From positions 12,317 through 76,316 of the forward strand of contig JBBQUV010000004.1 of NCBI GenBank assembly GCA_038212075.1: DNA of 64,000 nt, in the 5' to 3' direction. Of the stretch, positions 2,082 to 52,750 are shown piece by piece; position 1 is the first letter of the stretch, and the number at the start of each line of letters is the position of its first letter. Below the pieces are notes generated by a model. The model did not search any database. It had not been told where the DNA came from and saw only the letters and a program-made list of their open reading frames with translations. This DNA comes from Minisyncoccia bacterium (GTDB taxonomy: Bacteria; Patescibacteriota; Minisyncoccia; Phycocordibacterales; Phycocordibacteraceae). A program made the position numbers and the translations under genes.

Positions 2082-2084
2082 GGT

Positions 2085-3424: not shown

Positions 3425-3425
3425 T

Positions 3426-4502: not shown

Positions 4503-4515
4503 TAAGACGACATAC

Positions 4516-6171: not shown

Positions 6172-6950
6172 CCCCCGAAGTGGATATGGTAATGGCCCTG
6201 AAATCGGAAGGCAGGATGCAAGCCCATGAGAAAGGTGTCAGTTTAGGAACAACGGGCGGCGTTGCAAGTGGTAGCAGCCGAGCGCGTACCCGTGAGACCG
6301 CGATGCACGTCGCGCACGCGAATAATCCGGAAATAAAAGGTACCGAAACCTATGAAGAACTGGTTGAGAAACTGGGTAGGCCGTGGACGAATAAGGCATT
6401 CGACATGCCGTTTAGCAAGGATGACGAAGATTTTCCCATCATCCTAGAGAAATCGAATGACGGTACGCTCCTCAAATGGTGTGCTGAGCAGGCTGATAAG
6501 GCGCTTGTGGAAGGAGACGCGAGCAATACCATTTACGGTACCCAGGCGCGCGAGATAGCAAAAGTCTTAGTACGTTTCGCGGCCATAGCGTCAAAAATGG
6601 CGGACCGTGCCGAACTTATGTTTGAGCGTGGCGAAGAACCAGAAACTGAGCGTGAACAAGTGATGGGAACACATGCGGGCGTGAATGAGTCATTCGTCGC
6701 CGAAGTCGTGAAGCGTACGCTTGGCGAGGATGAACGACAGAAACTGCTGGACGCCGTCCCATCCGGTGTTATGGAAACGCAAGGGTCGGACATCAATATC
6801 GTGGCTCGCCCTGGCGGAGAAGAACCACGCATCCACCTAAGATTCGAAGGAGGAAAAGAACAGAAATATATCTTTGATCAGGATGTCCCTCTCTCAGTCA
6901 TTCGTAGCATTATCAAAGATTTTTCTCCGAGAGAAACCCCAGAAGCATGA
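6126..6950 (+). CDS. Histidine phosphatase superfamily (phosphoglycerate-mutase/SixA-like branch) protein.
   Basis: N-terminal MHIFRHGKKDGPHD (RHG catalytic motif), GVASGSSRARTRETA (the SS-x-RA-x-TA motif) and a distal QVMGTHAGVNESFV (second catalytic His). The start is chosen at the ATG just before RHG. The longer ORF from 6057 overlaps the upstream gene further. Confidence 0.6.
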   Translation: MHIFRHGKKDGPHDVTPEVDMVMALKSEGRMQAHEKGVSLGTTGGVASGSSRARTRETAMHVAHANNPEIKGTETYEELVEKLGRPWTNKAFDMPFSKDDEDFPIILEKSNDGTLLKWCAEQADKALVEGDASNTIYGTQAREIAKVLVRFAAIASKMADRAELMFERGEEPETEREQVMGTHAGVNESFVAEVVKRTLGEDERQKLLDAVPSGVMETQGSDINIVARPGGEEPRIHLRFEGGKEQKYIFDQDVPLSVIRSIIKDFSPRETPEA

Positions 6951-8527: not shown

Positions 8528-8534
8528 TTTTTGC

Positions 8535-11712: not shown

Positions 11713-12810
11713 ATGGAAGTCATTCTGCTCATCCTCGTTCTTATCGTGCTTATACTCGTGCACGAGTTTGGGCATTTTATCGCCGCGAAACTTTCCGGTA
11801 TGCGTGTGGATGAATTTGGTATCGGGTATCCGCCACGCGCACTCGTGTTGTTTAAAAAGGGAGAGACCGAATATACCCTTAATTGGCTCCCCTTTGGGGG
11901 GTTTGTGAAAATCTATGGCGAAGACTCGGATGCTGTTACCACTGATGGTCGTGCGTTTACGGACAAAAACCGATTTTTGCAAGCTATCGTGCTCCTTGCC
12001 GGCATTACGATGAATCTTGTTTTTGCGTGGATTCTTATTTCCGGCAGTCTTGCCGCAGGCACGACGCGCGCACTTGATGACAATGAAATTGCGTTTGCAA
12101 AAGATGCGGTCATTACCGTGTCCGATGTGCTTCCGGGTTCTCCGGCAAGCGATGCAGGAATAATCATAGGCGACTCCATCACTAAAGTGATTGTGGGAAA
12201 TGACATGCTCACGATCACCGACCCTAAGGCGTTTACGGAGCTTGTGGCAAAAGACACCAAAGGTACACCTATCACCCTTGATATGCAGAGAGACGGCAAA
12301 GAAATTTTGCTTTCCGTAGTTCCACAAAAAAATGTGATTGCTTCTGCACCAGACCGCCTTGCGCTTGGAGTAGGGCTTGCGGTGGTGGGCACGGTCCCTG
12401 TCTCTCTCTACCGTGCTCCTATTCTTGGTGCGCAGTATACGTGGGAAATTGTGAAAGCAACGGCAGTCGGGCTTGTACACTTTTTTGGAAGCATCGTCAC
12501 TTTTTCTGCAAACCTTTCGCAAGTGTCAGGACCCATAGGTATTGCAGGCGCAGTAGGCACTGCATCAAAAGCAGGACTTTCAGCACTTGTCTCTCTTACG
12601 GCGATTATTTCTATAAATCTTGCACTTATTAACCTTGTGCCGGTTCCGGCGCTTGATGGCGGTCGGTTGCTGTTTGTGATTATTGAAAGCATTACGCGAC
12701 GCCGTATTCCCCCAACGGTTGCCACTATGGCAAACACCGTAGGGTTTGGTCTACTTATTCTCCTCATGCTTGTGGTGACGGCGCACGATGTTTGGAAGTT
12801 GTTTGTGTAA
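11713..12810 (+). CDS. rseP: Site-2 protease (RseP-like) zinc metalloprotease with PDZ domain.
   Basis: HEFGH zinc motif in the first TM helix (LVHEFGHFIAAKLSGMRVDEFGIGYPP), a central PDZ-like segment, and a C-terminal NLVPVPALDGGR motif. Confidence 0.85.
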   Translation: MEVILLILVLIVLILVHEFGHFIAAKLSGMRVDEFGIGYPPRALVLFKKGETEYTLNWLPFGGFVKIYGEDSDAVTTDGRAFTDKNRFLQAIVLLAGITMNLVFAWILISGSLAAGTTRALDDNEIAFAKDAVITVSDVLPGSPASDAGIIIGDSITKVIVGNDMLTITDPKAFTELVAKDTKGTPITLDMQRDGKEILLSVVPQKNVIASAPDRLALGVGLAVVGTVPVSLYRAPILGAQYTWEIVKATAVGLVHFFGSIVTFSANLSQVSGPIGIAGAVGTASKAGLSALVSLTAIISINLALINLVPVPALDGGRLLFVIIESITRRRIPPTVATMANTVGFGLLILLMLVVTAHDVWKLFV

Positions 12811-27119: not shown

Positions 27120-27599
27120 ATGAAAACCTCTACGCTCTCGGCGACGACACTTTTATTGTCGTTTCTCGGGATTGCTGACGCGTGGTACCTCACGCAAAGC
27201 GCTTACTCCGGAGCATCACTTACCTGTGATATCGCAGGGCTTGATGGCTGTAATATTGTTGCCCAAAGTGTCTATTCCCACCTGTTTGGGTTTCCGCTTG
27301 CGCTCTATGGTGTCTTCTTCTATGCCTTTATTTTCGTCCTTTCAGCGGCGACACTCGGAATCCCCGAAGTATCACGTCGATTGGTGCGTCTCGGACTTTT
27401 CCTTTTTGGTCTCATAGGATGTGTTGCTTCTATACTTTTTGTAGCAATTCAATTGCTGCTTATAAAAGCAATTTGTGTGTATTGTTTTGGATCAGCATTT
27501 CTATCAATTCTTATTTTTTGTGCAGTGGTAGTGATTTGGAAACGAGAACGAAACCGTGTGTTTATGGTATCGCCAGACGTGCCATTTGTGGTATCGTAA
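27120..27599 (+). CDS. Vitamin K epoxide reductase (VKOR) family membrane thiol oxidoreductase.
   Basis: Four TM helices, the conserved S-x-Y-x3-FG-x-P-x-A-x-YG segment (SVYSHLFGFPLALYG), a loop Cys pair (LTCDIAGLDGC) and the CVYC active-site CxxC in the last helix. Confidence 0.7.
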   Translation: MKTSTLSATTLLLSFLGIADAWYLTQSAYSGASLTCDIAGLDGCNIVAQSVYSHLFGFPLALYGVFFYAFIFVLSAATLGIPEVSRRLVRLGLFLFGLIGCVASILFVAIQLLLIKAICVYCFGSAFLSILIFCAVVVIWKRERNRVFMVSPDVPFVVS

Positions 27600-28756: not shown

Positions 28757-29230
28757 ATGGCACTTCCTCAGGTTGGCGCACCTGCGCCTGTATTTACGCT
28801 TCACGATCAAGATGGTGTGGAGCACAGTCTTACGGATTACCGCGGAAAGTGGTTGCTCATATATTTTTACCCGCGCGATAACACCGCCGGCTGTGCTACT
28901 GAAGCTAGTGGCATGCGAGACGAGTTTCAGCATTTTGAAAAGATTGGCGCCACGGTTCTTGGTGTCTCAACCGACTCCGTGAAAAGTCATAAAAAGTTTG
29001 CCGATGCCTATAGACTCCCGTTCACGCTTCTTTCGGACGAGCGTAAAGAGATGGTGAATGCATACGGCGTGTGGAGTGAAAAGAAATTTATGGGTCGTGT
29101 GTATTTAGGCACGGTTCGTACTTCGTTTTTGGTGAATCCGGAAGGAACTATTGTAAAAATATACGAAAAGGTAAAACCAAAGATTCATGCCGGTGAAGTT
29201 ATTGCTGACTTACAGCATCTTGTGAAATAA
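28757..29230 (+). CDS. bcp: Peroxiredoxin Bcp (thiol peroxidase, AhpC/TSA family).
   Basis: APAPVFTLHDQDGVEHSLTDYRGKWLLIYFYPRDNTAGCATEA contains the peroxidatic Cys in the Bcp context. Confidence 0.88.
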   Translation: MALPQVGAPAPVFTLHDQDGVEHSLTDYRGKWLLIYFYPRDNTAGCATEASGMRDEFQHFEKIGATVLGVSTDSVKSHKKFADAYRLPFTLLSDERKEMVNAYGVWSEKKFMGRVYLGTVRTSFLVNPEGTIVKIYEKVKPKIHAGEVIADLQHLVK

Positions 29231-39228: not shown

Positions 39229-40887
<1,659 letters not shown>

Positions 40888-40907
40888 AACGTTACAACAA
40901 AAACAAA

Positions 40908-40942
40908 CAAAACCGCTCCGGTAAACCGGAGCGGTTTTGTTA
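40908..40942 (+). terminator. Rho-independent terminator after groEL.
   Basis: aaaaccgctccgg, loop taaa, ccggagcggtttt, then gtt. Confidence 0.65.
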
Positions 40943-41049
40943 TGCACACTGTTTTTTATTTTGAAACTATAAACTAACTGTGGTGATACTATGCGAACAT
41001 ATGAAAAAATCTCTGCTTCTGGTAGCAGGGGGAATGATATACGGTTTCT

Positions 41050-42264
41050 ATGACAACCGACGCAGTACAGCGCGAGCTTAAGCGTGGTAGCCAACTCTCG
41101 GTTATCGCACTTGTCGGAGCGCTCATAGAAAAAGCGAGTAAAGTTTGTTCATCCGACATTCACCTTGAGCCAACATTGCATGGCCTCGTTGCGCGCTTGC
41201 GTGTTGATGGCGTCCTGCATGACGCGTACGTTTTTCCCAAAGAAATACGTTCGGAAATTATCTCCCGTATTAAAGTGCTCTCGAGGTTACGTACAGACGA
41301 ACACCAAATGACCCAAGACGGGCGTTTTCGATACGACTTGCGAGACAGTTCGTTTGTAGACGTGCGCATATCTATTGCGCCTACCTATCATGGAGAAAAC
41401 GCCGTACTCCGTCTTCTTTCTAACACCGCAGAAAATTACACACTTGGCGCGCTTGGCTTTAGTGTAGAGGATACTGAAAAAATCACGAATGCCATACGAA
41501 AACCAAACGGGATGATTCTTTCCACGGGGCCAACCGGTTCCGGAAAAACAACCACCATGTACACGCTCATCCGAATGCTCAATTCTCGAGATGTTTCCGT
41601 GGTTACCATTGAAGATCCTATTGAATATGCGGTGGAGGGCATTGAACAAATTCAAGTGAATCCGCACGCTGGACTTACCTTTGCGAACGGACTGCGCACC
41701 ATTCTTCGGCAAGATCCAAACATAATTATGGTGGGTGAAATTCGCGATGCAGAAACGGCAAGCATTGCGGTCAATACCGCGCTTACCGGACATCTTCTCT
41801 TGTCTACGCTTCATACTAACGATGCCGCAACAACACTCCCACGCCTTCTCGATATGCACGTGGAAGCATTTTTGGTTGCGTCCACTATTCGCATTGCCAT
41901 CGGTCAACGGTTGGTGCGTAAAATTTGTGGTGCCTGCCGTGAAGAAGCGCCCATTACTGCAAAAGTAGCGAAATATCTTTCAGCGTCCTCACTTCGCAGT
42001 AAGGTGCGAGCGAACAATATCTTTTTCAAAGGAAAAGGATGCGATGGGTGTAATCACACTGGATATAGCGGTCGTATATGTTTGAACGAAGTAATGGAAA
42101 CGAATGCAGATATCCAGCAAGCTATTTTAAATCGAGCGCCTGCAGCAGAATTAAAAAAGATTGCGATAAAAAATGGAATGACACCAATGCTTGAAGATGG
42201 TTTCCAAAAAGCGCGCACGGGCGTGACCACTCTCGAAGAGGTGCTGCGCGTAGTGAATGATTAG
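41050..42264 (+). CDS. pilB: Type IV pilus / T2SS assembly ATPase (GspE/PilB family), compact form.
   Basis: Walker A GPTGSGKTT, Asp/His boxes, and the tetracysteine motif CGACREE...GKGCDGCNHTGYSGR characteristic of GspE/PilB rather than PilT. Confidence 0.8.
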   Translation: MTTDAVQRELKRGSQLSVIALVGALIEKASKVCSSDIHLEPTLHGLVARLRVDGVLHDAYVFPKEIRSEIISRIKVLSRLRTDEHQMTQDGRFRYDLRDSSFVDVRISIAPTYHGENAVLRLLSNTAENYTLGALGFSVEDTEKITNAIRKPNGMILSTGPTGSGKTTTMYTLIRMLNSRDVSVVTIEDPIEYAVEGIEQIQVNPHAGLTFANGLRTILRQDPNIIMVGEIRDAETASIAVNTALTGHLLLSTLHTNDAATTLPRLLDMHVEAFLVASTIRIAIGQRLVRKICGACREEAPITAKVAKYLSASSLRSKVRANNIFFKGKGCDGCNHTGYSGRICLNEVMETNADIQQAILNRAPAAELKKIAIKNGMTPMLEDGFQKARTGVTTLEEVLRVVND

Positions 42265-42266
42265 CT

Positions 42267-43454
42267 ATGGTAAAGAAACACACTTCGGTGCTTGGACGAT
42301 TGCGCAAGCGCGCGTCCACTCATGGTAAAAAAGTAATCGCTTCGCGAGCGAGCGTTTTTATACGTGCCATCTACGTACGATATGTGGCATATTCGCTCAC
42401 TCGTACACCTCGTCTGTCTATCACCGAACAAACTTTTTTTGTAAAACGGCTCGCCTTCCTCATTACTGCCGGTATTCCTATTTTGGAAAGTCTGCACATG
42501 CTTCGCGAACAATCACGTTCGCGTATGTATGTTCGCGTGATGGATGCAATCATTGATGATGTTGCCAACGGACAAACTCTTTCAAAAAGTCTTTCAAAAT
42601 TTCCGGAAATGTTCGGTGAGTTCGGCGTGAACATCATTATGGTGGGGGAGGCGAGTGGTAGTTTAAGTAAAAATCTTGAATATCTTGCAAATGAACTCAA
42701 TAAAAAAGAAGCACTTCGCCGCAAACTGCTTGGCGCGCTTGCGTATCCTGCACTGATTACAGCCACGACACTCGGCATCACCGCGTTCTTGATGATCTAC
42801 CTGTTTCCAAAAATTATGCCGGTGTTCACTTCGCTCAACATGAAGCTACCGCTTTCAACACGTATCGTTATTGGCGCAAGCAATGTTCTTCGAAACCACG
42901 GGCTTATGTTGTTCGTCCTTATCACCGCTCTCGTGATTGCTTTTTTCGTGACGTATCACCGTGATCGTATTTTTCGCGAACACGTTGATCGCCGTATGCT
43001 AGGGGTGCCCGTGCTCGGTAAGCTCATTCGCTATTACAGTCTTGCCCATTTTACTCGCACGCTCGGATTACTTATAAAAAGTGGCGTAACGTTTCCAAAT
43101 GCGCTAGCGATTGTTGCCACCACGAGCGGTAATACTGTGTATGAAAAACACGCGCGAGAGCTTGAAGAAAGGGTGATACGCGGCGAAGCCATCTCGCCGT
43201 ACTGTGCGATACACCGTAATGCATTTCCAGATAGTATGGCGCAGATGCTGGCGGTGGGGGAGCGTACAGGAAATCTCTCCAACACGCTTGTATATCTGTC
43301 CGAGTTTTATGAAAAAGAAATGGATGATCTTACCAAGAATATCTCCACTCTTATTGAACCTGGGCTGATGATTTGTATGGGACTTCTGATTGGGTTCATT
43401 GCTATCTCTATAATTACTCCTATCTATGGCATTACACAAAATCTTCATCCATAA
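42267..43454 (+). CDS. pilC: Type IV pilus inner-membrane platform protein (GspF/PilC family).
   Basis: Two repeated GspF domains with the IIMVGEASGSL and MLAVGERTGNL motifs, plus three TM segments. Confidence 0.8.
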   Translation: MVKKHTSVLGRLRKRASTHGKKVIASRASVFIRAIYVRYVAYSLTRTPRLSITEQTFFVKRLAFLITAGIPILESLHMLREQSRSRMYVRVMDAIIDDVANGQTLSKSLSKFPEMFGEFGVNIIMVGEASGSLSKNLEYLANELNKKEALRRKLLGALAYPALITATTLGITAFLMIYLFPKIMPVFTSLNMKLPLSTRIVIGASNVLRNHGLMLFVLITALVIAFFVTYHRDRIFREHVDRRMLGVPVLGKLIRYYSLAHFTRTLGLLIKSGVTFPNALAIVATTSGNTVYEKHARELEERVIRGEAISPYCAIHRNAFPDSMAQMLAVGERTGNLSNTLVYLSEFYEKEMDDLTKNISTLIEPGLMICMGLLIGFIAISIITPIYGITQNLHP

Positions 43455-43962
43455 GCGTAAACCTTCATCGCGAGGATTCACGCTTATGGAAATACTCGTG
43501 GTGCTTGTCGTCGTCGGTACCATCGCTAGCTTTTCTTTATTTGTGGACATACGAAATTATCACAGTGACGCGTTTCGTGCTGAACGCACGACGCTTATTA
43601 CTCTACTTCAAACCGCGCGTGCAAACGCACTCAATAACGTAGGTGAAATGCCGCATGGTGTTGCTATTTTCCCGAACGATCACCCAAACAGTTACGTGCT
43701 TTTTGACGGTGCCGATTATGCAACAAGTAATAATTCAACACACCAGATCATCGATGCGGGTTACCACGTGGTGTTTGATGTCGATTCTCCTACGCAAATT
43801 ATTTTTTGTCAGTTAAGCGGCGACATCGTTACCAGTATTCAAGAAAGTACACGCTGTGATGATGCGGTGAATAGGTATGATGGGAAGATAGTTCTTATAG
43901 ATACGGAGAGAGGGCTACCATTTGATATCACACTCAATCATGAAGGCGGTATTAGTTGGTAA
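43426..43962 (+). CDS. Type IV prepilin / pseudopilin (class III signal peptide).
   Basis: Leader MALHKIFIHKRKPSSRG, then FTLMEILVVLVVVGTIASF (the G|FTLxE prepilin peptidase site plus a hydrophobic helix). Confidence 0.65.
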   Translation: MALHKIFIHKRKPSSRGFTLMEILVVLVVVGTIASFSLFVDIRNYHSDAFRAERTTLITLLQTARANALNNVGEMPHGVAIFPNDHPNSYVLFDGADYATSNNSTHQIIDAGYHVVFDVDSPTQIIFCQLSGDIVTSIQESTRCDDAVNRYDGKIVLIDTERGLPFDITLNHEGGISW

Positions 43963-45478
43963 GCACCGAGGGTTTAGTACTCTTGAAATAATGATCGCCC
44001 TTGCGGTGATAGCTATTGTGCTGGCCGGTGTGATTTTGGCAGATTTTGGTGTCCAATACTGGACGGTGACAGCTCAAACCAGCAACGAGGCACTCTACAA
44101 AGGCAAAGTGCAACTTGAAAAAATTCGCTCTGCATCGGTGCATGATTTCTATTCTGCCGTTTCAACTCCGTCTACCAAAGATACCGATACGGCATGCGGT
44201 AGTGGTGGCCTCTGCTACTACATACAAAACACCGTCGCCGATATTTCCCCGTGTTCAAAGTATGTGGAAAGTACCATCTCATGGCAGGTGCCACGCTACC
44301 CAACATCAACCACCTATCTGCCGTCGTATCTTTCAAGTGCCAAAGAAGCTGTTTCTCTTGGTGGAGATTGCGGTCTCAATTATCCGTTTGGCGCGTGGTC
44401 AAGTCCTATCGAAATGAGTAATGGGAACCTTGCCGCTCCACCAACCGGTATTGATGTGGTGAACGGTGTTGCGTATGTTACTGAAAGCACAAGCCCCTAT
44501 TTTGAAGTCACGTCTGTAAGTGCCCCGGGAAGCACCTCGGCACTCGCACCGCCAAGAGATCCAGCATCCTTTAATGCGCTAGACGTGGCTCGCGATTTAG
44601 CAACGGGGCGGTTGTATGCGTATGTCGCCGCAAATAATACGCAATTTCGGGTGATTGATGTCACTAATCCAAAAAGCCCCCTCCAGATAGCAAGTAGTGT
44701 GCTATCTGGAGTAGCAACAAGCACATCGCAAGGGCAGGGATGGCGCATTGTCTACTACGATCGCAAGGTATATCTCACCACTCGGTACAATAGTGGGCTA
44801 CCGGAACTGCATATTTTTGATGTTGGCTACCCTATACGTCCTTTTGAAGTTGGATACGACACCGTAGCAAAAAGACTGGGTATCTCACTTGGCACGTCGG
44901 TGTACGATATGGCGATTCGTGATCAGTATTCAGCCGTCGATAAAAAAATACACCGCTTTTTATTTCTCGCTACAACACTCACTACTGGTGAGCTGAAGGT
45001 GCTTGATGTAAGCGATCCAAAAAAAGTAAACCCAACACCGATTGCCACGTGTGATTTACGTGGAAACTATCAAGCAACTGCCATTACTGTGTTAGGTAAT
45101 ACGCTCTACCTTGGTCGGGATACACCAAGCGGAACGCCAGACCTTCTTGCGTTTGACGCTACTGATCCACTTTCGCCATCGTTCTGTACACCACTTGGCC
45201 AAACGGAAGTAGAGACAGGTTTTTTGGACTACAGTCGCCATGTCGTAGGTATTCGTGCAAGTGGGCCATACCTTTATATAGCCACTACCAACACTACCCG
45301 TGCGCATGGGCAAGTGCAGGTGCGCAGTGTACTTCCGTCCAGTCTTTCACTTCTTGGCACCTTTGCCGTCCCTCTGCTTACGGACAACGCCTTAGACTTT
45401 GATGGCGGTGCCAATATGCTCTATATACCGAGCGGCACGTCTTCAGGAAAACTACAGTCCATCACCAGCTCACCATGA
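43940..45478 (+). CDS. Large minor pilin / pseudopilin (about 512 aa) with an N-terminal prepilin signal and a C-terminal LVIVD-type beta-propeller-like repeat domain. Candidate pilus-tip adhesin.
   Basis: KHRG|FSTLEIMIALAVIAIV prepilin motif. Repeated units such as RLYAYVAANNTQFRVIDVTNPKSP, LKVLDVSDPKKVNPTP and LLAFDATDPLSPSF. Confidence 0.6.
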   Translation: MKAVLVGKHRGFSTLEIMIALAVIAIVLAGVILADFGVQYWTVTAQTSNEALYKGKVQLEKIRSASVHDFYSAVSTPSTKDTDTACGSGGLCYYIQNTVADISPCSKYVESTISWQVPRYPTSTTYLPSYLSSAKEAVSLGGDCGLNYPFGAWSSPIEMSNGNLAAPPTGIDVVNGVAYVTESTSPYFEVTSVSAPGSTSALAPPRDPASFNALDVARDLATGRLYAYVAANNTQFRVIDVTNPKSPLQIASSVLSGVATSTSQGQGWRIVYYDRKVYLTTRYNSGLPELHIFDVGYPIRPFEVGYDTVAKRLGISLGTSVYDMAIRDQYSAVDKKIHRFLFLATTLTTGELKVLDVSDPKKVNPTPIATCDLRGNYQATAITVLGNTLYLGRDTPSGTPDLLAFDATDPLSPSFCTPLGQTEVETGFLDYSRHVVGIRASGPYLYIATTNTTRAHGQVQVRSVLPSSLSLLGTFAVPLLTDNALDFDGGANMLYIPSGTSSGKLQSITSSP

Positions 45479-45948
45479 AAGCAGACCCACACAAAGGATT
45501 TACGCTTCTGGAAGTTGTCATATATATAGGACTTTTCGCTATAGTAATGGGTGGTGCCATTACGGCGACAGTGCAATTGTTAAAAAGCGGTGAAAGAAAT
45601 GAACGATCGGCGGCAATACAAGAAGAAGGCACTTTTCTTATTCGCAAAATCAATTGGCTTGTCACGAGCTCCTCTGTAGTAAGTGCGCACGGCGGTGATT
45701 CGCTCACCATAACAAAACGTAATGGTCCGGATTTTAATTCCGCAACAGATAACCCGCTCGTACTTACGGGGCAGGACGGTGCGGTTACTGTCACTCGCGG
45801 TTCGCTACCTTCTGTAACCTTAAATTCCGATGCCTTGCCCGTAACCGACTTTGTAGCAACGGTAGATAGCTCATCAGGAAAAACAGTCGTAGATGTGCAT
45901 TTCGCCATTCAAACCATACCGTTCGTATTTACAACCTACTTACGATAG
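45475..45948 (+). CDS. Type IV prepilin / minor pilin.
   Basis: MKADPHKG|FTLLEVVIYIGLFAIVMGGAI prepilin motif. ATGA-coupled to the upstream gene. Confidence 0.65.
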   Translation: MKADPHKGFTLLEVVIYIGLFAIVMGGAITATVQLLKSGERNERSAAIQEEGTFLIRKINWLVTSSSVVSAHGGDSLTITKRNGPDFNSATDNPLVLTGQDGAVTVTRGSLPSVTLNSDALPVTDFVATVDSSSGKTVVDVHFAIQTIPFVFTTYLR

Positions 45949-46047
45949 AGGCGTTAGTCGCACAACCCTCTTTACGGTGTTATAGTCCCGCCAGAACCGA
46001 TTTTCATAAGAAAATCGGTGGTTTAACGCTCATCAAGGGAGAGTACT

Positions 46048-46890
46048 ATGGCGACGAAAAACGTCGTTCTTGAAGGAAAAACGAAACATATTCACCCACT
46101 CGATGTCTTGGTGGAAGCCAAAAACTTCGTGACCTGGGGGAATAAACACTCGGCAGAAATGTCGGGCAAGGGGGAAATGTCGACCAGAACAATGGTGGCG
46201 ATGTTTCGCTTGCTTGAGGCGAACGGCCGCCGGGCGGTTTTTCAAGGGCAAACATCGGCGACGATGTACCGCGCGCGCTTCTCGCACATGATTCTGCTTG
46301 AAGTCGTCGTGCGGTTCCGCAATGAAGAATTAGGTTCGCTCCACAAGCGCCGTCCCGATTTGCCACTTGGACTTTTGCCGAAACCGCTCGTCGAGTTCTA
46401 TCTGAAGTCGAGCGGTGAAGAGTTCGGCGGCGTGAAGTTGCCGGGCGATGACCCGCTCATCACTTCATGGAACGACGAAGGCGTCTTCGTTCATCCGGCG
46501 GGCAAGTCGGTGGAAGGCGATGGCCTGTTCGTTCCTTTTGCGGCGGAAGGATGGTCGTCTGCTCTTTCGGATCTGTTCAGTCTTTTGGCGCGTGAAGCGC
46601 TGATTGACGCGACGATCGTCCGCAAGGGCTGGCTGGCTGTTAAGTGGGATATGGGAGATGTGAAGCTCGAATACGGCTTCGTCATTTCCCATAATAATGG
46701 CGACGCTATTGCGACGCTCTACCTCGCTGAAGCGCCGAGCAATGACGAGTGGCGCATTCGCGACCCGAAAGGCATAGAGCGGAGCAAGCAGAACATCCGC
46801 AACGGTAAACCGGTGAAGGATGCTATCGAGGATTACTTCCTCGTCGCTCGCGCGGCGGAGATGATTCGCTTTAGCAAAGTACACAAATAG
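46048..46890 (+). CDS. SAICAR-synthetase (PurC)-like fold protein with compositionally atypical (higher-GC) sequence.
   Basis: VVLEGKTKHIHPLD (the PurC-like GKTK N-terminus) and HMILLEVVVRFRNEELGSLHKRR (resembling PurC's EVVVRGY..GS motif). GC is about 55-60% versus 43-48% in neighbouring genes. RBS AAGGGAGAG. Confidence 0.45.
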   Translation: MATKNVVLEGKTKHIHPLDVLVEAKNFVTWGNKHSAEMSGKGEMSTRTMVAMFRLLEANGRRAVFQGQTSATMYRARFSHMILLEVVVRFRNEELGSLHKRRPDLPLGLLPKPLVEFYLKSSGEEFGGVKLPGDDPLITSWNDEGVFVHPAGKSVEGDGLFVPFAAEGWSSALSDLFSLLAREALIDATIVRKGWLAVKWDMGDVKLEYGFVISHNNGDAIATLYLAEAPSNDEWRIRDPKGIERSKQNIRNGKPVKDAIEDYFLVARAAEMIRFSKVHK

Positions 46891-46914
46891 TCGCGAAGGC
46901 AACACGAAGAACTG

Positions 46915-46948
46915 AAGACGGCTGCGCAAGCAACCGTCTTCTTTTTAT
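46915..46948 (+). terminator. Rho-independent terminator after the SAICAR-synthase-like gene.
   Basis: gaagacgg (46915-46922), loop, ccgtcttc (46934-46941), then ttttt. Confidence 0.6.
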
Positions 46949-46998
46949 CCCGAGCTGAAAGAAAGACGGTAGTAACTGTATCGTATACTAAAGAGGTA

Positions 46999-49764
46999 AT
47001 GGAGGGAGCATTTGAGGCACCAGCACAACCCTTGCAGAGCCCTGAAGAGGAGCTCGCGTATTTGCGTGCGCAGGTGCAGGCAAAAGAAAAACAGCTTGCG
47101 GCGCTTCAGCAAGAACAACCGCGAGAAGCGATTGTAGAGGAACGCATTTTGCACCATCACCAAGCGGCACCACAAACCGTGCTCGCGCCACAGTACGAAC
47201 TGCCACAAACCGAAGCGCATGCGCTCGCGCTTAATCTTGACCCAGAAGCCGACGACGAAACCATGAGCGAACTTCGTGGGATTATGGAAGAAAAGGGCAT
47301 TAAAAACGCGCTTACTGTTCTTGAAAAATTAAACAGCCCGCACTTGGAGGACGATTTTCATCGGTTTCTTGCCCAATACATTCTTTCTGGAATGCCGGCG
47401 CGCGGGCTTGAAGAAAAGAAACCAGAATGGAAGGCACTTCATATGACGCTCTACGAAATTGCGCTTCCAGAACCGTCTGCGGAAGACGAACAAAATAATC
47501 GCGTCAAGCCGCTCAAAGAGCTTATTTCTGCGATGGAGCAGTTTTATTCAGGAATGCTTTCGGTAGAACACGCCGACCCAAACGAACCATCATATTTTTC
47601 AATGGAGCTTGCGGTGCCTGCAAACCATGCACAACTTTTCTTTTATGTGGGCGTACCAAACCATAAAAAAGACCTCTTTGAGAAACAAATACTTTCCATA
47701 TTTCCAAACGCACGCATCATACCGCAATCAAACGACTACAACATTTTTGTGCCTGATGGCTCAGCGTGCGGGTCGGTGGCTTCGCTTGCCACGTGGCCTG
47801 CACTCCCTCTAAAAGACTACGAAAACTTTGACTACGACCCATTGAATAGTGTGCTCAACGCATTTGCAAAAATAGAAGCAGAAGGAGAAGGTGCGGCGCT
47901 CCAAATTATTATTGAACCAGCAGGAGAGCAATACCACGAGCATTATAGAAAAATCCTCCAAGGGCTTCGCAAGGGAGAGAACCGACTGCGCGCACTTTCA
48001 ACACCAGCTGGCTTGCTCGGAGAGACTGCGCGAGAATTTGGCAGTTTCTTGTTTGGCGCCACCAAAGAAAAGAAAGAAGAATACGAAAATAAAATTCGTA
48101 GTTCCGATATAAACAAATTGGATATAGAGCAAGTGGAGCGCAAAATCGCTACGCCAATCGTGAACACCACTATTCGCATGATTGTCTCATCGTCCGACGC
48201 ACACCGCGCGCAGGCGGGGCTTATAGATCTTGAATCGTCATTCAATCAATTTACAAACACGGTAGGGAACCAGCTTACGTTTAATCGCCCAACTGCATCG
48301 CGTGCAAAGAGTGTTTTCCACGACTTCTCCTACCGGCTCCCATCTTCCACGAAGATGCCCCTTTCTTTGAAGGAAATCACGACCATGTATCACTTCCCAC
48401 CAAAGGGAATAGAATCGACGCCACAATTGAGCCAGTCGCGCTTCACGGCCGCGGCCGCGCCACTTGGTATTCCCCAAGCGGGCACGCTTCTTGGTACCAA
48501 TTCATTCCGTGGAAAGACATCCAACGTATGTCTTGAGCTTGAAGACCGTTTGCGCCACCTCTACATCATTGGACAAACCGGTACTGGTAAAACAGTGTTT
48601 ATGAAAAATCTTGCCATTCAAGATATTCTTGCAGGCAATGGCGTGTGCTTCATTGATCCGCACGGTAACGACATTTTGGATATTCTTGCCGCCATTCCAC
48701 CCGAACGCTATGAAGACGTCATTTATTTTGACCCAGCAGACATCAAACGTCCGTTCGGACTTAATCTTTTGGAATACGATGCCGCGCATCCGGAGCAAAA
48801 AACATTCATCGTGAACGAACTACTCGCCATTTTCCGTCGTTTGTACGGCGATGTTCCTGAGTCTATGGGTCCCGCGTTTGAACAGTACTTCAGAAACGCA
48901 ACGCTTCTCGTGATGGAAGACCCCGCTTCGGGTTCCACTCTGCTCGATGTCGCACGGGTGCTTTCAAACAAACCATTCCGTGATTTGAAGCTCAGCAAGA
49001 GTACCAATCCGGTCATCAATCAATTCTGGCGTGAAATTGCCACACAGGCTGGTGGGGAAGCCTCGCTTGAAAATATCGTGCCCTACATCACCAACAAATT
49101 TGACGACTTCACGGCAAACGATTTTATGCGCCCGATTGTCGGTCAGCAAGAATCGTCCTTTAACTTCCGTGAAGTCATAGATACGAAAAAGATATTGCTC
49201 GTGAATCTTTCAAAGGGTCGCCTTGGTGAACGAAACGCAAACCTGCTAGGGCTTATCTTGGTGGGCAAGCTCTTTATGGCGGCATTGTCGCGTGCCGACG
49301 CCCCCGGTACGCAATTCCCACCATTCTTCTTGTATATCGACGAATTCCAGAACATCACCACCGATTCTATTCCTGGTATTTTGTCGGAAGCCCGCAAATA
49401 CAAGCTTTCCCTCAATATCGCGCACCAATTCCTTGCGCAAGTTGACGAAAAAATTCGCGATGCGGTGTTTGGCAACGTTGGCTCCATGGCAGTATTCCGC
49501 GTCGGGCAGGAAGATGGAGAATTCTTTGAAAAACAATTTGCACCAACCTTTACCGCACTGGATTTTGTGAACATTGAAAACTACAACGCATATATCAAGA
49601 TTCTTGCAAAAGGTGTGCCGCAGAAACCATTTAATATAAAAACACCGGCACCGTTTGCGGGAAATCCAAATCAAATAGATGACCTGCGTGAACTATCATT
49701 CCTTACCTATGGGCGCGACCGTCAACAGGTAGAGAGTATGATTCACGCTCGCTATCTGTCATAA
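46999..49764 (+). CDS. VirD4/TraG/TraD-like type IV coupling-protein-family ATPase (FtsK/HerA clade) with a long N-terminal coiled-coil/acidic region and no obvious TM anchor.
   Basis: Walker A YIIGQTGTGKTVFMKN. Walker B / DEFQN box FFLYIDEFQNITTDSIPGILSEARKYKLSLNIAHQFLAQV (TraG-D_C-like). Downstream FRVGQEDGEFF. 921 aa. Confidence 0.6.
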   Translation: MEGAFEAPAQPLQSPEEELAYLRAQVQAKEKQLAALQQEQPREAIVEERILHHHQAAPQTVLAPQYELPQTEAHALALNLDPEADDETMSELRGIMEEKGIKNALTVLEKLNSPHLEDDFHRFLAQYILSGMPARGLEEKKPEWKALHMTLYEIALPEPSAEDEQNNRVKPLKELISAMEQFYSGMLSVEHADPNEPSYFSMELAVPANHAQLFFYVGVPNHKKDLFEKQILSIFPNARIIPQSNDYNIFVPDGSACGSVASLATWPALPLKDYENFDYDPLNSVLNAFAKIEAEGEGAALQIIIEPAGEQYHEHYRKILQGLRKGENRLRALSTPAGLLGETAREFGSFLFGATKEKKEEYENKIRSSDINKLDIEQVERKIATPIVNTTIRMIVSSSDAHRAQAGLIDLESSFNQFTNTVGNQLTFNRPTASRAKSVFHDFSYRLPSSTKMPLSLKEITTMYHFPPKGIESTPQLSQSRFTAAAAPLGIPQAGTLLGTNSFRGKTSNVCLELEDRLRHLYIIGQTGTGKTVFMKNLAIQDILAGNGVCFIDPHGNDILDILAAIPPERYEDVIYFDPADIKRPFGLNLLEYDAAHPEQKTFIVNELLAIFRRLYGDVPESMGPAFEQYFRNATLLVMEDPASGSTLLDVARVLSNKPFRDLKLSKSTNPVINQFWREIATQAGGEASLENIVPYITNKFDDFTANDFMRPIVGQQESSFNFREVIDTKKILLVNLSKGRLGERNANLLGLILVGKLFMAALSRADAPGTQFPPFFLYIDEFQNITTDSIPGILSEARKYKLSLNIAHQFLAQVDEKIRDAVFGNVGSMAVFRVGQEDGEFFEKQFAPTFTALDFVNIENYNAYIKILAKGVPQKPFNIKTPAPFAGNPNQIDDLRELSFLTYGRDRQQVESMIHARYLS

Positions 49765-49771
49765 TGTATAT

Positions 49772-52750
49772 ATGAAAATCGGTGGCTTTAACATTCCTCC
49801 AAGAAAACCAAAAGACGATAAAGAACCGGAAGATCTTCGCGGTAATAGAGACTCACTTCCGGAGCTTGGTGGCATGTCGCCCGCTGATTTTAGGAATCAA
49901 CCACTGCCCGCACCCCAAGAAGCAAATATTTCTCCTGCAGATTTTCGTAGAGAAAGAGACGGTGGTGAGGCACCACCTATTCGCCCAGAAGACAAGCTTG
50001 GCGCCGGCGCAAGCGCTGAAGAAGTTAAGGTCGCCGTTGCTGACATTCTTGCGGAAGAAAAACCATCAGCAGATACTCGTTCTGAAAACCAAAAACGCTC
50101 AGAGCGCGGGGAATCCTACTCTGCAGACTGGGCAGGCTCGGGTAAAAGTCCTGCTGAAGTAATTGCCTTGAAGCAACGTCTTGAATCGCTCGTGGGTGCG
50201 GTGCAAGCAAAAACAAAAAAATGGAAAGAAGACTCTGAGGCCAAAAGTAAGGCAAAGAAAGAGGCAAAAACAAAGAAAGCAAGTGATAAGGCTACTGCCA
50301 AAACACAAAAAGTCGATGCTAAAGAGTCGGCAAAGAAAGAAAAGACCGACAGGAAATCTGCAAAAGAAAGTGTTAATGCTGAAAAAAAGGAAAAAATAAA
50401 ACAAGAACGTATTGAAGCGGTAGACGGCAAGCCGGGCGTGAAAGAAGCAAAACGTAGCGAACTTGCTGACAAGGCAGGCGCAAAGCTTGAGCGAGAGAAT
50501 ATGATAAGTGCAGAAAAAGAATATTTTGCAGAATACAAAACATTTATCACGAAAAATGGCGTTACTAAGCGTCTTTTCAAGAACGTTTTTAATACCAAGG
50601 ATGCCGACCTGCTTGCGAAATTTAAAAACAACTACGACGACGCTCGTGCGCTCTACACTAAACGTCTGCGTCAAACAGTGACTGATCGCGTGGATGAAAA
50701 ATTTGGCATCACTGAATACGACGAAAATAATAACCCTCTCGGAGAGGAGAAGGTTCTGGAGAAGCGAAACAGGATGATTGAGAAATACATGGCGGTTCAG
50801 CGCTTCAACGACGTCATTACTCGTGCGGCAGAAGGACGTACTGAAGCACGAAAGGAAGCGCTGAATGAGCGCGGCAAAGGAACGCTTCGCAAAATGGGAG
50901 ACAAAATCGGCGAATGGAACCGAAACTTGGAAAAGAAATATGGCAAAAGAAATGCCCGCATCATTCGCCTTCTTGGAAGCACTGCCGCGGCATCTGCGCT
51001 CTTTTCACTTAGCGGTGGCGTTGGAGTGCTTGGGTATGCGGCCGGTAAGGTGACGCGTGGGCTCATTAGTATGACCGCCGGTTCAACGGTGGGTGGTATC
51101 GCTGGTCTTGGTTACACCCATACGATAGGAAAATTGATGGAGTATCAGTTGGCACGCACTCGTCGCAGTCAAGGCTCCGGCGCAAATCAAATTCAAAAAG
51201 AGGAACGTGCCCATCGTATCGGAAATAAAAAAGCGATTGAAAAACAACGAATGGTGGTTGAACTTCTTACGGGCGTTGGCCTGTCGTACGAAACCGCAAC
51301 GCATCTTGCTACGGTCGACATAATGCAACACACTGCCGCTTCGGTGAACCACGGTGGTTCAGTACAGTGGGGTGATCATCACAAACCATCAACGATTTCT
51401 TCTAGTCACTCAGCAGGTTCAGAATCCGCTCCAGTGCAATCACATGAATCAAACGGCAGTAACGCCGATTCATCCACGGCGGATACAAACACCGCACCAA
51501 GCGATACGGTTTCTGGCGGAGGCACGCCACCTGCTGACGCTGGAACGGGTGGGGAAACAAGTACCACAGCCCCAAGCCCAGATGATTTTAAATCCATACC
51601 AGAAGGTTCAGATGCTGTAGGAACAGATGGGGCCGCACCTCCGTCTATAGAAAATGCATTGAATTTGCATACTGAAGTGCACGCAGGACAGGGCGCAAAC
51701 CAAGTGTGGGGCGATTTCAAAGAACAGTTGCGAGATAGTGGTGTGCTCAACGATCCAAACACTTCGCCTGAAGCACGCGCCGCAATTCAACACATTCTTG
51801 ATTCAAAACCGGGAGCTCTTTCATCCGAATACGGTTTTGCAACAGAAAACGCGAGCGCGGTGATTCACACAGGGGATTCCATTGATGTCGCGCAAAACGG
51901 GGATATTGTGTTCACTCCACATCATGGTGAAGGAATTGTGCTTGCACACACCGATGCCGACGGCACGGTGCATCCGGCAGACCATTCCGACCTTACAATG
52001 AAGCCAAATCACCCGGTGATTTCTGAGAAACACACTCCACAGCACACCGTTCACCACACACCACACACGACGTCTGTCGATAGTCCGGAAAGTTTGGCCC
52101 AAGTGAAGGCAATCTACGAGTGGGAACACGCTCACCCAGGCGAACCTATTCCACAGAACCTCTACCTTCACACAGACGTCTCTCCACCAGCTCCAGAAAA
52201 TGTTCCAACGCAATCACCGGAAGTTTCTCCAACTCATTCTGATGTCGCGCCACTTCCGCCAACGCATACTGAATTACCTCCACCAGCACCACAAGCAGAT
52301 CTTCTTTCCCGTATTGAATCAGCTCAATCTCCAGAGTCTGTGCGTAGTATTCTTGATGCTGAAATACACGCCCACGGCGTAACGCCTGCATTGATGGCAG
52401 ATCTTATAAAAGAAGCTCCACACATGCCAGCAAACCCGCACCTTGCTTCATATATTGATATTGACTCGAGCGGAACATTGCCCGGCCCAGCTGTATTTCT
52501 GGGTCACGATGGACAGCTAACGGTGTATGGTGCTGCAGATGCCGGTAGTACGTACGAAGCACAACTTAAATTAGCGCACAGCTTTGCCGGAACGTCTGGT
52601 CAACCGGTCAACGTGCTTTTTGCGGATCATTCGCCTGGCCACGTGAAAGTGTATCCGGATGGACACGTAGAAGGGGTTACTAAAGGATTCTTTAGCTCAT
52701 ATCAGCCGCCGGAACCTCTTCAAAAATCAGTATATGTATTTCAACGCTAA
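49772..52750 (+). CDS. Very large (992 aa) low-complexity protein: Lys/Glu-rich charged region, a central Gly-rich hydrophobic segment, then a Ser/Thr/Pro/His-rich disordered region and a C-terminal globular part.
   Basis: Region 1 AKKEAKTKKASDKATAKTQKVDAKESAKKEK. Region 2 LLGSTAAASALFSLSGGVGVLGYAAGKVTRGLISMTAGSTVGGIAGLGY. Region 3 SSSHSAGSESAPVQSHESNGSNADSSTADTNTAPSDTVSGGGTPPADAGTGG and PTHTELPPPAPQ. Confidence 0.5.
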   Translation: MKIGGFNIPPRKPKDDKEPEDLRGNRDSLPELGGMSPADFRNQPLPAPQEANISPADFRRERDGGEAPPIRPEDKLGAGASAEEVKVAVADILAEEKPSADTRSENQKRSERGESYSADWAGSGKSPAEVIALKQRLESLVGAVQAKTKKWKEDSEAKSKAKKEAKTKKASDKATAKTQKVDAKESAKKEKTDRKSAKESVNAEKKEKIKQERIEAVDGKPGVKEAKRSELADKAGAKLERENMISAEKEYFAEYKTFITKNGVTKRLFKNVFNTKDADLLAKFKNNYDDARALYTKRLRQTVTDRVDEKFGITEYDENNNPLGEEKVLEKRNRMIEKYMAVQRFNDVITRAAEGRTEARKEALNERGKGTLRKMGDKIGEWNRNLEKKYGKRNARIIRLLGSTAAASALFSLSGGVGVLGYAAGKVTRGLISMTAGSTVGGIAGLGYTHTIGKLMEYQLARTRRSQGSGANQIQKEERAHRIGNKKAIEKQRMVVELLTGVGLSYETATHLATVDIMQHTAASVNHGGSVQWGDHHKPSTISSSHSAGSESAPVQSHESNGSNADSSTADTNTAPSDTVSGGGTPPADAGTGGETSTTAPSPDDFKSIPEGSDAVGTDGAAPPSIENALNLHTEVHAGQGANQVWGDFKEQLRDSGVLNDPNTSPEARAAIQHILDSKPGALSSEYGFATENASAVIHTGDSIDVAQNGDIVFTPHHGEGIVLAHTDADGTVHPADHSDLTMKPNHPVISEKHTPQHTVHHTPHTTSVDSPESLAQVKAIYEWEHAHPGEPIPQNLYLHTDVSPPAPENVPTQSPEVSPTHSDVAPLPPTHTELPPPAPQADLLSRIESAQSPESVRSILDAEIHAHGVTPALMADLIKEAPHMPANPHLASYIDIDSSGTLPGPAVFLGHDGQLTVYGAADAGSTYEAQLKLAHSFAGTSGQPVNVLFADHSPGHVKVYPDGHVEGVTKGFFSSYQPPEPLQKSVYVFQR

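Follow-up and report, generated by a model that had tools for sequence, protein, structure and literature searches.

What kind of filament carries a pilin fused to a propeller-like domain, and where in that filament would such a protein sit? This question is raised by a pilus locus at positions 41050-45948 (+ strand) of the window, the whole 64,000-nucleotide stretch that was analysed, in which an ORF check identified a PilB/GspE-type ATPase, PilC and three prepilins. The five ORFs proposed in the initial annotation were all recovered on the + strand with the same coordinates, and their overlaps of 29, 23 and 4 nt (ATGA) match the sequence exactly. The first gene (41050..42264, + strand) encodes a PilB/GspE-type assembly ATPase of 404 aa, of which residues 17-400 match Pfam T2SSE (E=1e-111). 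This ATPase is short, misses the N-terminal N1/GSPII domain and contains the Walker A motif (residues 160-167), Asp box, Walker B and His box. The GspE-type Cys4 motif that had been ascribed to pilB is present as CxxC...CxxC at residues 293-334. The PilC/GspF platform protein (395 aa; 42267..43454, + strand) matches Pfam T2SSF in two stretches (E=1.6e-47).

In NCBIfam searches the ATPase scored 469 bits for GspE, 445 bits for PilB and 244 bits for ComGA, all under the equivalog cutoffs, and the platform protein scored 278 bits for GspF. The best matches of both proteins are therefore to type II secretion families, and the first pilin is GspH-like. This would fit a secretion pseudopilus with the propeller pilin as plug or substrate adaptor, an explanation that can hardly be credited, as every score stays under its equivalog cutoff and neither the window nor the annotated flanks contain a secretin, GspC, GspL or GspM. 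Moreover, the CPR envelope is generally held to be of the monoderm type, which would leave no outer membrane for such a system to cross. As had been claimed, Pfam scans covering the window's remaining large ORFs detected no PilD, PilM/N/O or secretin, nor did they find PilT.

Each of the three adjacent prepilin genes postulated downstream of pilB-pilC indeed carries a class III motif and matches Pfam N_methyl (E=6e-6, 3.8e-4 and 1e-6). In a six-frame scan of all 64 kb, the class III signal-peptide motif occurred only in these three genes and in one false match inside an MFS transporter ORF. As the trio comprises the sole genes with a true motif in 64 kb, and these are contiguous, co-oriented and directly 3′ of pilB-pilC, chance can be excluded. 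Prepilin 1 (178 aa; 43426..43962, + strand) has the leader ...SSRG/FTLMEIL (slash, cleavage site). It matches TIGR01708 GspH in its N-terminal part only (1.8e-7), and 8 of 14 orthologues match Pfam GspH PF12019 (best E=3e-5); prepilin 1 is thus a predicted minor pilin of the GspH/FimU-like type. For prepilin 3 (157 aa; 45475..45948, + strand; leader MKADPHKG/FTLLEVV), AlphaFold2 gave a pilin fold (pLDDT 95.5) with a helix at 11-63 and seven strands. This fold had no significant match in the PDB, and N_methyl, present in 79 of 79 homologues, was the only consistent domain. Prepilin 3 is a minor pilin that fits no minor-pilin class in fold and family searches.

The upstream boundary of the pilus operon is marked by a 16-bp hairpin (40906..40941, no strand assigned) 19 nt past the groEL stop codon, which was detected as a terminator-like site in the scan and by reading the sequence. 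The sole + strand promoter-like match in 40700-47100 is a sigma-70-like match (40961..40990; TTGAAA, 18-nt spacer, GATACT) 60 nt 5′ of pilB. It is a consensus match only, in a scan with fewer matches than shuffles predict, and as weak evidence it serves as a lead only. Direct reading of the sequence revealed a perfect 10-bp hairpin (ACCGATTTTC ATAA GAAAATCGGT; 45996..46019, + strand) 48 nt past the stop of prepilin 3, which is a possible operon end. The terminator scan did not report it because it has no T-run.

The middle prepilin (512 aa; 43940..45478, + strand, from the ATG start) had been described as a pilin N-terminus fused to a large C-terminal domain, and the conservation of G-1 and E+5 together with the AlphaFold2 model confirmed a genuine bimodular prepilin. 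Its longest ORF starts at TTG 43922 (518 aa), with GGAGAGAGGG 7 nt upstream, whereas ATG 43940 agrees with the starts of homologues and with database entry P0001. The start is therefore ambiguous, but the mature protein is identical for both. Based on TIGR02532 and conservation, the class III leader MKAVLVGKHRG (aa 1-11; 43940..43972, + strand) is predicted to be cleaved after G11, giving the mature N-terminus FSTLE with Glu at +5. The N_methyl match (20.4 bits) is slightly below the cutoff of 21.2, the TIGR02532 match reaches 18.9 bits (cutoff 16.3), and G11 (G-1) and E16 (E+5) are at least 90% conserved among 90 homologues. The pilin module (aa 12-150; 43973..44389, + strand) was defined by the AlphaFold2 model, cysteine conservation and a module profile search. 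In the model it consists of a 55-residue alpha-1 helix (residues 14-68) and a 4-stranded sheet (76-132), and its linker ends in a conserved LGGDC. Cys86, Cys92, Cys105 and Cys144 are invariant in the 29 closest homologues. The window also encodes a VKOR homologue, which fits these four conserved cysteines.

The remainder of the protein (aa 151-512; 44390..45475, + strand) is a seven-bladed LVIVD beta-propeller according to Pfam LVIVD, AlphaFold2 secondary structure and Foldseek. The LVIVD-like repeats from which a propeller had been predicted are present: the strings VIDVTNPKSP, VLDVSDPKKVNP and AFDATDPLSP were all found, and PF08309 matches with E=8.4e-8 (31.9 bits; cutoff 20.2), with only one repeat passing singly. 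The predicted propeller was also borne out by the AlphaFold2 model (pLDDT 94.1, pTM 0.91), in which the pilin helix and small sheet are followed by seven blades of four strands each (7 x 4), ending in FEVTSV, FRVIDVTNP, HIFDVGYP, KVLDVSDP, LAFDATDP, VQVRSVLP and KLQSITSS. TIGR04312 (choice-of-anchor B) matched weakly. Foldseek retrieved 7-bladed WD40-type propellers (E about 1e-8, TM up to 0.72), generic ones only and without a clue to the ligand.

About 90 full-length homologues of the propeller pilin were found, and a profile of the pilin module collected 743 cluster representatives at E<=1e-10, with top hits mostly of 460-590 aa. All named homologues belong to the Paceibacteria/Parcubacteria, and the family is widespread yet unstudied. 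When related pilus operons were compared, the five-gene order was identical in every locus examined (15 distinct genome loci and L020-L023), while the flanks differed. The five genes thus act as a unit, in line with the single operon that had been suggested. Beyond this earlier view, the relatives revealed a fourth pilin-like gene without Glu+5, always located 3′ of the third pilin, and, within the cassette or close to it, a major pilin of the T4a type. Neither was found in the 64-kb window, and the junction was confirmed by an independent assembly. The window holds a truncated form of this conserved cassette of 6-7 genes. Since PilD, the major pilin and the fourth pilin are not in the 64-kb window, the assembly competence of this genome is unproven.

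The gene set of the relatives is reminiscent of the core minor pilin sets (GspH-I-J-K, FimU-PilV-W-X and ComGD-GG): the first pilin is GspH-like, four pilin-like genes are consecutive, and the last lacks Glu+5. Together with the major pilin, this set resembles GspH-I-J-K plus major pilin in order, and the core minor pilin order H, I, J, K mirrors the gene order of the relatives. However, no GspI, J or K family model is matched by the second, third or fourth gene. Also unlike these sets, the fourth gene is missing from the window and the second gene carries a 360-residue propeller.

The presence of a major pilin also bears on whether a filament is made at all. The Bas system of Sulfolobus, a bindosome, uses a dedicated ATPase, a platform and small pilin-like proteins to keep a ligand-binding protein, itself bearing a class III signal peptide, on the cell surface. 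A similar display, with no long filament and with the propeller capturing a nutrient, would be consistent with the cassette having its own ATPase and platform, no retraction ATPase nearby and, in the window, no major pilin. In addition, there is a weak BasE match, and the Foldseek list contains BtuK1, a B12-binding propeller. However, the BasE match reaches 29.8 bits against a cutoff of 1000, and BtuK1 matches poorly, with a TM of about 0.5 and an rmsd of 13 A, generic WD40 propellers matching better. The major pilin of the relatives, which has a C-terminal Cys pair in L002 and L022, argues for a real filament, and we regard such a display as very doubtful.

The filament could also serve DNA uptake, as a CPR counterpart of the monoderm comG operon, in which a short ATPase, a platform and pilins capture environmental DNA without PilMNO or PilT and the DNA receptor includes the propeller pilin. 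The extended cassette comprises the ATPase, the platform and five pilin-like genes, and the genes comGA-GG are equal in number. The ATPase without N1 domain matches ComGA (1.8e-72), and PilM/N/O/T/Q are absent within about 10 kb of the cassette at all loci with annotated flanks. Moreover, competence genes are present in CPR genomes (PMC9938205). Nevertheless, we consider a Com-like function improbable. The ComGA score is below its cutoff of 300 bits and far below the GspE and PilB scores, the gene order is unlike that of comG, with the major pilin last or remote and not first, and family members have acidic propellers (median pI 4.65, median net charge -14). Furthermore, type IV pilus mutants of TM7x show no competence defect (PMC11623550).

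The propeller pilin belongs to the known class of 'modular pilins', and precedents exist both for its architecture and for propeller pilins. In the survey of Raynaud et al. 2021, pilin-LVIVD proteins (IPR012902 followed by IPR013211) account for 30 proteins in 7 architectures, for example an 860-residue protein of Candidatus Falkowbacteria (PMC8179133). IPR013211 is the LVIVD repeat (PMC10210494), and the domain combination is the same as here. The survey listed the architecture only, with a motif 'of unknown function', and gave no structure, gene context or family analysis (PMC8179133). PilB (pilin-vWA) and PilC (pilin-lectin) of Streptococcus sanguinis, also a monoderm with a compact operon, likewise combine a small pilin module and a canonical class III signal peptide with a bulky binding module (PMC8179133). 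Their cargo domains differ from the propeller, and experiments have placed them in the filament and demonstrated ligand binding, whereas the protein described here is known from sequence and models.

The closest functional precedent is found in another CPR bacterium. PilX2 of Nanosynbacter lyticus TM7x (Saccharibacteria) belongs to the minor pilins of the thin T4P-2 pilus and is a proposed tip adhesin; its deletion halved host binding, while the filament was still made (PMC11623550). Like the propeller pilin, it is encoded among minor pilins and has a pilin-like N-terminal helix and a C-terminal seven-bladed beta-propeller. Compared by description, PilX2 has RCC1 repeats instead of LVIVD repeats in its propeller and no predicted PilD-type signal peptide, whereas a canonical G/FSTLE is present here. 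In addition, PilM/N/O are encoded at the TM7x loci, where the pilins have a locus apart from that of PilB2/PilC2. A propeller minor pilin needed for host binding gives the tip-adhesin reading a precedent.

Taken as a whole, the explanation we favour, and hold to be reasonably probable, is that the region encodes the core of a compact type IV filament system in an ultrasmall bacterium of the Paceibacteria type (CPR), with the propeller pilin displayed at or near the tip. The analysis provides the gene content, signal-peptide motifs, predicted folds, family size and conserved gene order, from which we infer the following course. Each leader would be removed behind its conserved Gly by a PilD-type prepilin peptidase whose gene lies elsewhere, and the hydrophobic alpha-1 helices would then go into the membrane. 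The minor pilins would build a priming complex on PilC, which would be incorporated into the filament and end at its distal end as PilB drives extension. The filament would thereby show the covalently attached acidic LVIVD propeller at or just below its tip, where it would most likely bind a ligand on the surface of a host or partner cell, or dock another tip protein. For modular pilins, exposure at the tip is expected (PMC8179133). The propeller pilin is thus probably part of the tip complex of the pilus, and by analogy a role as host-adhesion tip subunit is plausible.

A different division of labour is suggested by the fourth protein of the relatives, which is often giant and ranges from about 150 aa to >1800 aa. 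Its central segment is a vWA domain: VWA_2 was matched by 10 of 12 orthologue segments (best 8.5e-10), and the PDB profile matches include Mfa5, SpaC and integrin I domains. The modules of a PilY1-type tip protein could accordingly be split over two pilin-like proteins, the LVIVD propeller being a conserved scaffold that, like the C-terminal propeller of PilY1, docks to or regulates the tip, while the variable, giant vWA protein binds; the window genome would then encode only the scaffold half at this locus. Type IVa PilY1/PilC likewise presents a seven-bladed propeller at the tip with core minor pilins, and PilY1 proteins share this C-terminal propeller while their N-terminal modules vary, with a vWA among them, as in P. 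aeruginosa PilY1 (PMC8179133). In the relatives a vWA is encoded alongside the propeller pilin, the fourth gene being present in all of them. However, PilY1 does not belong to the pilins and lacks a class III signal peptide, whereas the propeller here is covalently fused to a pilin and the vWA resides in a separate pilin-like protein. The PilY1 propeller family is IPR008707, and in the Pfam scan the LVIVD propeller had no PilY1/PilC family match at E<=1. Moreover, the window genome keeps its LVIVD pilin intact although no vWA gene lies next to it, which suggests that the propeller is functional by itself. We regard a pure scaffold as unlikely.

For the display of the propeller at or near the tip, this leaves its exact position. 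The vWA-bearing protein of the relatives without Glu+5 is a better candidate for the apex and for adhesion than the LVIVD pilin. In known tip complexes, the apical (GspK-type) subunit is devoid of Glu+5, whereas the LVIVD pilin retains it and is second in the pilin gene order; the retained Glu+5 counts against an apical position. Propeller and pilin module are conserved to a similar degree (mean pairwise identity 42% and 47-53%, respectively), which is unlike what is usually seen for a host-specific adhesin. Given its acidity and a variability that does not exceed that of the pilin module, the propeller may be a conserved component of the tip complex rather than the adhesin that determines specificity.

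Five co-oriented ORFs are located on the plus strand of the window at 41050-45948. The first encodes a 404-aa ATPase, which matched Pfam T2SSE over residues 17-400 (E=1e-111) and harbours the full set of Walker A, Asp box, Walker B, His box and CxxC...CxxC motifs. The best two NCBIfam models for this protein were GspE (469 bits) and PilB (445 bits), with ComGA at 243.6 bits, and all scores were below the equivalog cutoffs (676 bits for PilB, 300 bits for ComGA). Since only the C-terminal two thirds of the GspE and PilB models were aligned (PilB model positions 178-563), the ATPase is without the N-terminal N1/GSPII domain. The second ORF (395 aa) was assigned to PilC/GspF by both Pfam and NCBIfam, where it scored higher for GspF than for ComGB (153.7 bits against a cutoff of 240). 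The overlaps of 29, 23 and 4 nt between the genes, from which the initial annotation had read a single operon, were found again at the same lengths. A 16-bp hairpin is present 3′ of groEL, a promoter-like match 5′ of pilB and a 10-bp hairpin 3′ of the last pilin gene.

The single operon also holds when related pilus operons are compared. Using a pattern scan, 15 distinct genome loci were collected from the narrower alignment (A3). In all 15, pilB and pilC come first and are followed in identical order by the ~160-aa pilin, the LVIVD pilin and the ~150-aa pilin, with different flanking genes. This order was seen at the loci of distant family members (27-35% identity) as well as in the closest one (64%). 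The groEL gene, the SAICAR-synthase-like gene, the VirD4-like ATPase gene and the 992-aa ORF next to the window cassette are not part of this unit. In one relative (L013, 7140-12850) the cassette genes are split by unrelated insertions and the pilin genes are intact; the insertions, identified by eye only, are a MazF/PemK-like ORF (7893-8306), a minus-strand Fic-domain ORF with HPFGDGNGRASR (8867-9820) and a 234-aa ORF at 12029-12733.

When scanning the 64-kb window, we found no prepilin peptidase PilD (Peptidase_A24), PilM/N/O, PilT or secretin, which bears out the initial annotation for PilD, PilM/N/O and the secretin. PilM/N/O/T/Q were also absent from the annotated flanks of the relatives. 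The window locus and the annotated flanks therefore differ from Type IVa machinery, which is defined by a full-length PilB with its N-terminal domains, PilM/N/O(/P/Q) and PilT; such genes may be located elsewhere in the genome. There is little support for a role of the genes in a T2SS or for a bindosome-like role. The archaeal bindosome assembly system (Bas) is defined by an ATPase and a membrane protein of the BasE/BasF type, and the score for BasE was 29.8 bits against a cutoff of 1000.

As initially annotated, pilB and pilC are followed by three genes with class III signal peptides, each with a short, basic, Gly-ended leader, a hydrophobic stretch of ~20 residues and Glu at +5. With a slash at the cleavage site, these read ...SSRG/FTLME in the first prepilin (178 aa), ...KHRG/FSTLE in the LVIVD pilin (512 aa) and ...PHKG/FTLLE in the third (157 aa). 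N_methyl (PF07963) matched with E-values of 6e-6, 3.8e-4 and 1e-6, respectively; the match of the 512-aa protein is slightly below the threshold, and TIGR02532 reached its cutoff in all three, in the 512-aa protein exceeding it. In a six-frame scan of the whole window the class III motif occurred in a plausible context only in these three genes. Among 90 aligned homologues of the 512-aa protein, conservation was at least 90% both for the Gly that precedes the cleavage site and for Glu+5.

The 178-aa pilin, the first of the three, is GspH/FimU-like, as is the first member of the core minor pilin set GspH-I-J-K. The GspH Pfam family was matched by eight of its 14 orthologues (best E=3e-5), and the window protein matched TIGR01708 with E=1.8e-7, over the N-terminal 55 residues only and below the cutoff. 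Models of the I, J and K types were matched by none of the second, third and fourth genes, the fourth being a pilin-like gene of the relatives described further on. The third pilin had no match among solved minor pilins or family models, and its fold search returned nothing below E=0.1. A single-sequence homologue search for it gave only two proteins, and a profile search was needed. Its AlphaFold2 model (pLDDT 95.5) contains a helix at residues 11-63 and seven strands, and is confidently predicted to have the pilin fold. The models of both the 512-aa and the 157-aa proteins place an extended alpha-1 helix on an antiparallel beta-sheet. When profiles built from the sequences of the three pilin modules were run against the PDB, the N-terminal helix of major pilins was the only part matched. 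Two homologues of the third pilin (P0276 and P0281, ~245 aa) are annotated with an extra GIY-YIG nuclease domain (PF01541), which may reflect either a fusion or the merging, in the gene call, of the pilin gene with an inserted one that is homing-endonuclease-like.

The beta-propeller of LVIVD repeats that had been predicted for the 512-aa protein was supported both by profile and by structural modelling. The LVIVD HMM (PF08309) scored 31.9 bits against a cutoff of 20.2 (E=8.4e-8) at residues 225-248; it recognised this one repeat only, and PF08309 is precomputed for most homologues. In the AlphaFold2 model, built with the homologue alignment (pLDDT 94.1, pTM 0.91), residues 14-68 form a helix and residues 76-132 a sheet of four strands; after a short linker, residues 152-511 make up seven blades, each four-stranded. 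Five of the blades finish with a motif of the x-x-D-[VA]-x-[DNY]-P type. A Foldseek search of the PDB with this model gave only seven-bladed WD40-type propellers (E ~1e-8, TM up to 0.72), among which no adhesin or enzyme stood out. The B12-binding protein BtuK1 was dropped as a lead because of its poor TM and rmsd in Foldseek.

The homologue search with the 512-aa protein yielded 210 proteins, ~90 of them full-length (460-560 aa). The named ones derive from MAGs of Paceibacteria, Kaiserbacteria or the ‘Patescibacteria group’ and are mostly annotated as hypothetical. When a profile of the pilin module was searched against 1.84 billion cluster representatives, 743 proteins passed E<=1e-10, and the majority of the 150 best matches had a length of 460-590 aa; pilin module and propeller therefore travel together in a large family. 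Mean pairwise identity is 42% in the propeller and 47-53% in the pilin module, the propeller thus being slightly less conserved. Four cysteines of the pilin module (Cys 86, 92, 105 and 144) are invariant in the closest 29 homologues and frequent in the wider set. Two genes elsewhere in the window (27120-27599 and 28757-29230) encode a homologue of VKOR and a peroxiredoxin of the AhpC/TSA type; VKOR would catalyse extracytoplasmic disulfide formation, which would fit the conserved cysteines. The propeller is acidic throughout the family (median pI 4.65, median net charge -14), and for this reason DNA binding by the propeller was rejected as the main reading.

In every relative, a further pilin-like gene is located directly 3′ of the third pilin gene (L023, 11943-14804; L004, 12004-17418; L018, 11838-17021; L019, 8226-12749; L013, 13334-15499; L001, 11957-13864; and other loci). 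Its prepilin-like N-terminus, G(Y/F)(I/V)AL(M/I)..., is without Glu+5. In known systems, a missing Glu+5 marks the apical subunit of the GspK/PilX/ComGG type. The product of this fourth gene measures ~150 aa at some loci; at most of them, the closest relative included, its length is between 590 and more than 1800 aa. The central segment is a vWA domain: VWA_2 was matched in 10 of 12 orthologue segments (best 8.5e-10), and among the PDB profile matches are integrin I domains as well as Mfa5 and SpaC, which are pilus tip adhesins. Long versions combine the vWA domain with prealbumin/Ig-like repeats. For the N-terminal module no Pfam or PDB family was matched. In L001, the public gene call had missed this ORF and placed small minus-strand genes there.

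The fifth gene of the relatives encodes a T4a-type major pilin with the N-terminus GFTLIEILVVIGIIAILAAIV...INPA and a strong N_methyl match (L020, 12512-12988; L021, 12607-13083; L022, 12428-12931; L001, 20523-21050; L014, 16177-16692; L018, 17081-17554). The L002 and L022 copies show a pair of Cys residues at the C-terminus. In distant members this gene is the last of the cassette, and in several close ones it is found 4-9 kb downstream. Its position bears on whether the cassette performs Com-like DNA uptake, in which a major-type pilin would be expected first after comGB; in the relatives it is last or remote. Together with this gene order, the ATPase scores and the acidic propeller make Com-like uptake less likely. 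The ATPase and the platform protein also fell short of the ComGA and ComGB cutoffs.

No T4a-type major pilin was found within the 64-kb window, and an HMM of 18 fourth-gene homologues hit no window ORF better than E=0.4. The last pilin gene is separated from the next gene by only 100 bp. An assembly error was rejected as the reason why the fourth gene is missing, since the same junction is present in an independent Logan assembly of the same organism. The run SRR19962015 also contains this sequence. The position of the relatives' fourth gene is occupied by a 280-aa ORF (46048-46890), which matched SAICAR synthetase over no more than its first ~120 residues (E=7e-11, with a score well short of the purC cutoff) and may encode a divergent or truncated PurC-like protein.

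The genes present, their motifs, the folds predicted for their products and the conservation of their order suggest that the set is most likely a compact type IV filament system. From these features we infer how the LVIVD pilin would be processed, assembled, positioned and used in binding. The prepilin leaders would be cut by a prepilin peptidase, for which the window holds no gene, and the minor pilins would assemble as a priming complex on PilC. PilB would then power the polymerisation of a major pilin encoded elsewhere, so that the distal end of the filament would be the minor-pilin complex with its propeller.

The initial annotation had proposed the 512-aa protein as a candidate tip adhesin. 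Its architecture and operon stand, and PilX2 of the Saccharibacteria strain TM7x, the closest experimental precedent, is also a minor pilin with a seven-bladed propeller, which is RCC1 in PilX2 and LVIVD here. Deletion of PilX2 halved host binding while the filament was still made (PMC11623550). On the other hand, the 512-aa protein keeps Glu+5, is second in order and has a conserved propeller. A tip-adhesin role is plausible but unproven, and was perhaps misassigned within the tip complex; the variable vWA giant of the relatives is the more obvious adhesin.

These same observations, with the vWA giant adjoining the third pilin gene in relatives, make a split PilY1 a serious rival, in which the conserved propeller would be the base and the variable vWA protein the binder. 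The PilY1 architecture behind it has been described (PMC8179133). PilY1 tip adhesins are non-pilin proteins with a C-terminal IPR008707 propeller, whereas in the 512-aa protein the propeller is fused to a pilin. With its class III signal peptide and no Pfam match to the PilY1/PilC family at E<=1, the 512-aa protein is no member of that family, but it may work like PilY1. Rather tentatively, one could picture a type IV filament machine that is minimal, self-contained and typical of Paceibacteria and that needs no PilM/N/O or PilT, in which each half of a PilY1-like tip protein is covalently fused to a pilin. The second minor pilin would carry the conserved LVIVD propeller, and the fourth pilin, without Glu+5, a giant hypervariable adhesin of vWA plus Ig. 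The window genome would then be a natural variant in which the vWA half and the major pilin were lost or relocated.

Paceibacteria (Parcubacteria) are the largest class of the CPR/Patescibacteria and have very few cultured members. The cassette and the vWA giant of the relatives are concrete, testable candidates for their attachment apparatus. The propeller-pilin theme, experimentally shown only in TM7x, is hereby extended to a different class of the CPR and to a different family of propellers. In the biology of pili this is a further case of binding modules grafted onto pilins, possibly a split PilY1, and it overturns no current view.

Modular pilins are a recognised class, to which the 512-aa protein belongs by combining the N_methyl motif (IPR012902) with LVIVD, a non-pilus-specific domain, in one chain; it is already in public databases without a name. 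A 2021 survey of modular pilins counted 30 pilin-LVIVD proteins (IPR012902 then IPR013211), one of them from Candidatus Falkowbacteria, and lists this architecture in its Dataset S1 with a repeat ‘of unknown function’ (Raynaud et al. 2021; PMC8179133). IPR013211 is the LVIVD repeat (PMC10210494). Our full-text search of the literature on LVIVD found no paper on these pilins or the cassette, and articles on Paceibacteria-host systems made no mention of them. Three findings appear undescribed, namely the structural model with its high confidence, the five-gene cassette kept strictly across Paceibacteria and, next to it in relatives, the vWA giant without Glu+5. They extend known themes rather than define a new kind of system.

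The remaining window content is CPR-type housekeeping (class I LysRS, mraZ/mraW, PBPs, MreBC, RNase J, GroES/EL, UvrAB). Downstream of the cassette, at 46999-52750, a VirD4/TraD-like coupling ATPase (921 aa; DUF87, TraG-D_C) is directly followed by the 992-aa ORF, which had no Pfam match; its N-terminal half is rich in Lys/Glu and its C-terminal half in His/Pro/Thr, and it contains hydrophobic segments. Both were rejected as parts of the system because the flanks vary between loci and are not kept with the cassette in relatives, and because Patescibacteria reportedly often carry VirD4-like genes as orphans (PMC12102498). At the other end of the window, seven tandem plus-strand genes (27-9959) form an unusual paralogous array. 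Five of the seven end in a PEP-utilising ‘mobile’ phosphohistidine domain (PF00391), the first also containing PPDK_N, and a histidine-phosphatase-like gene and one matchless ORF are interleaved.
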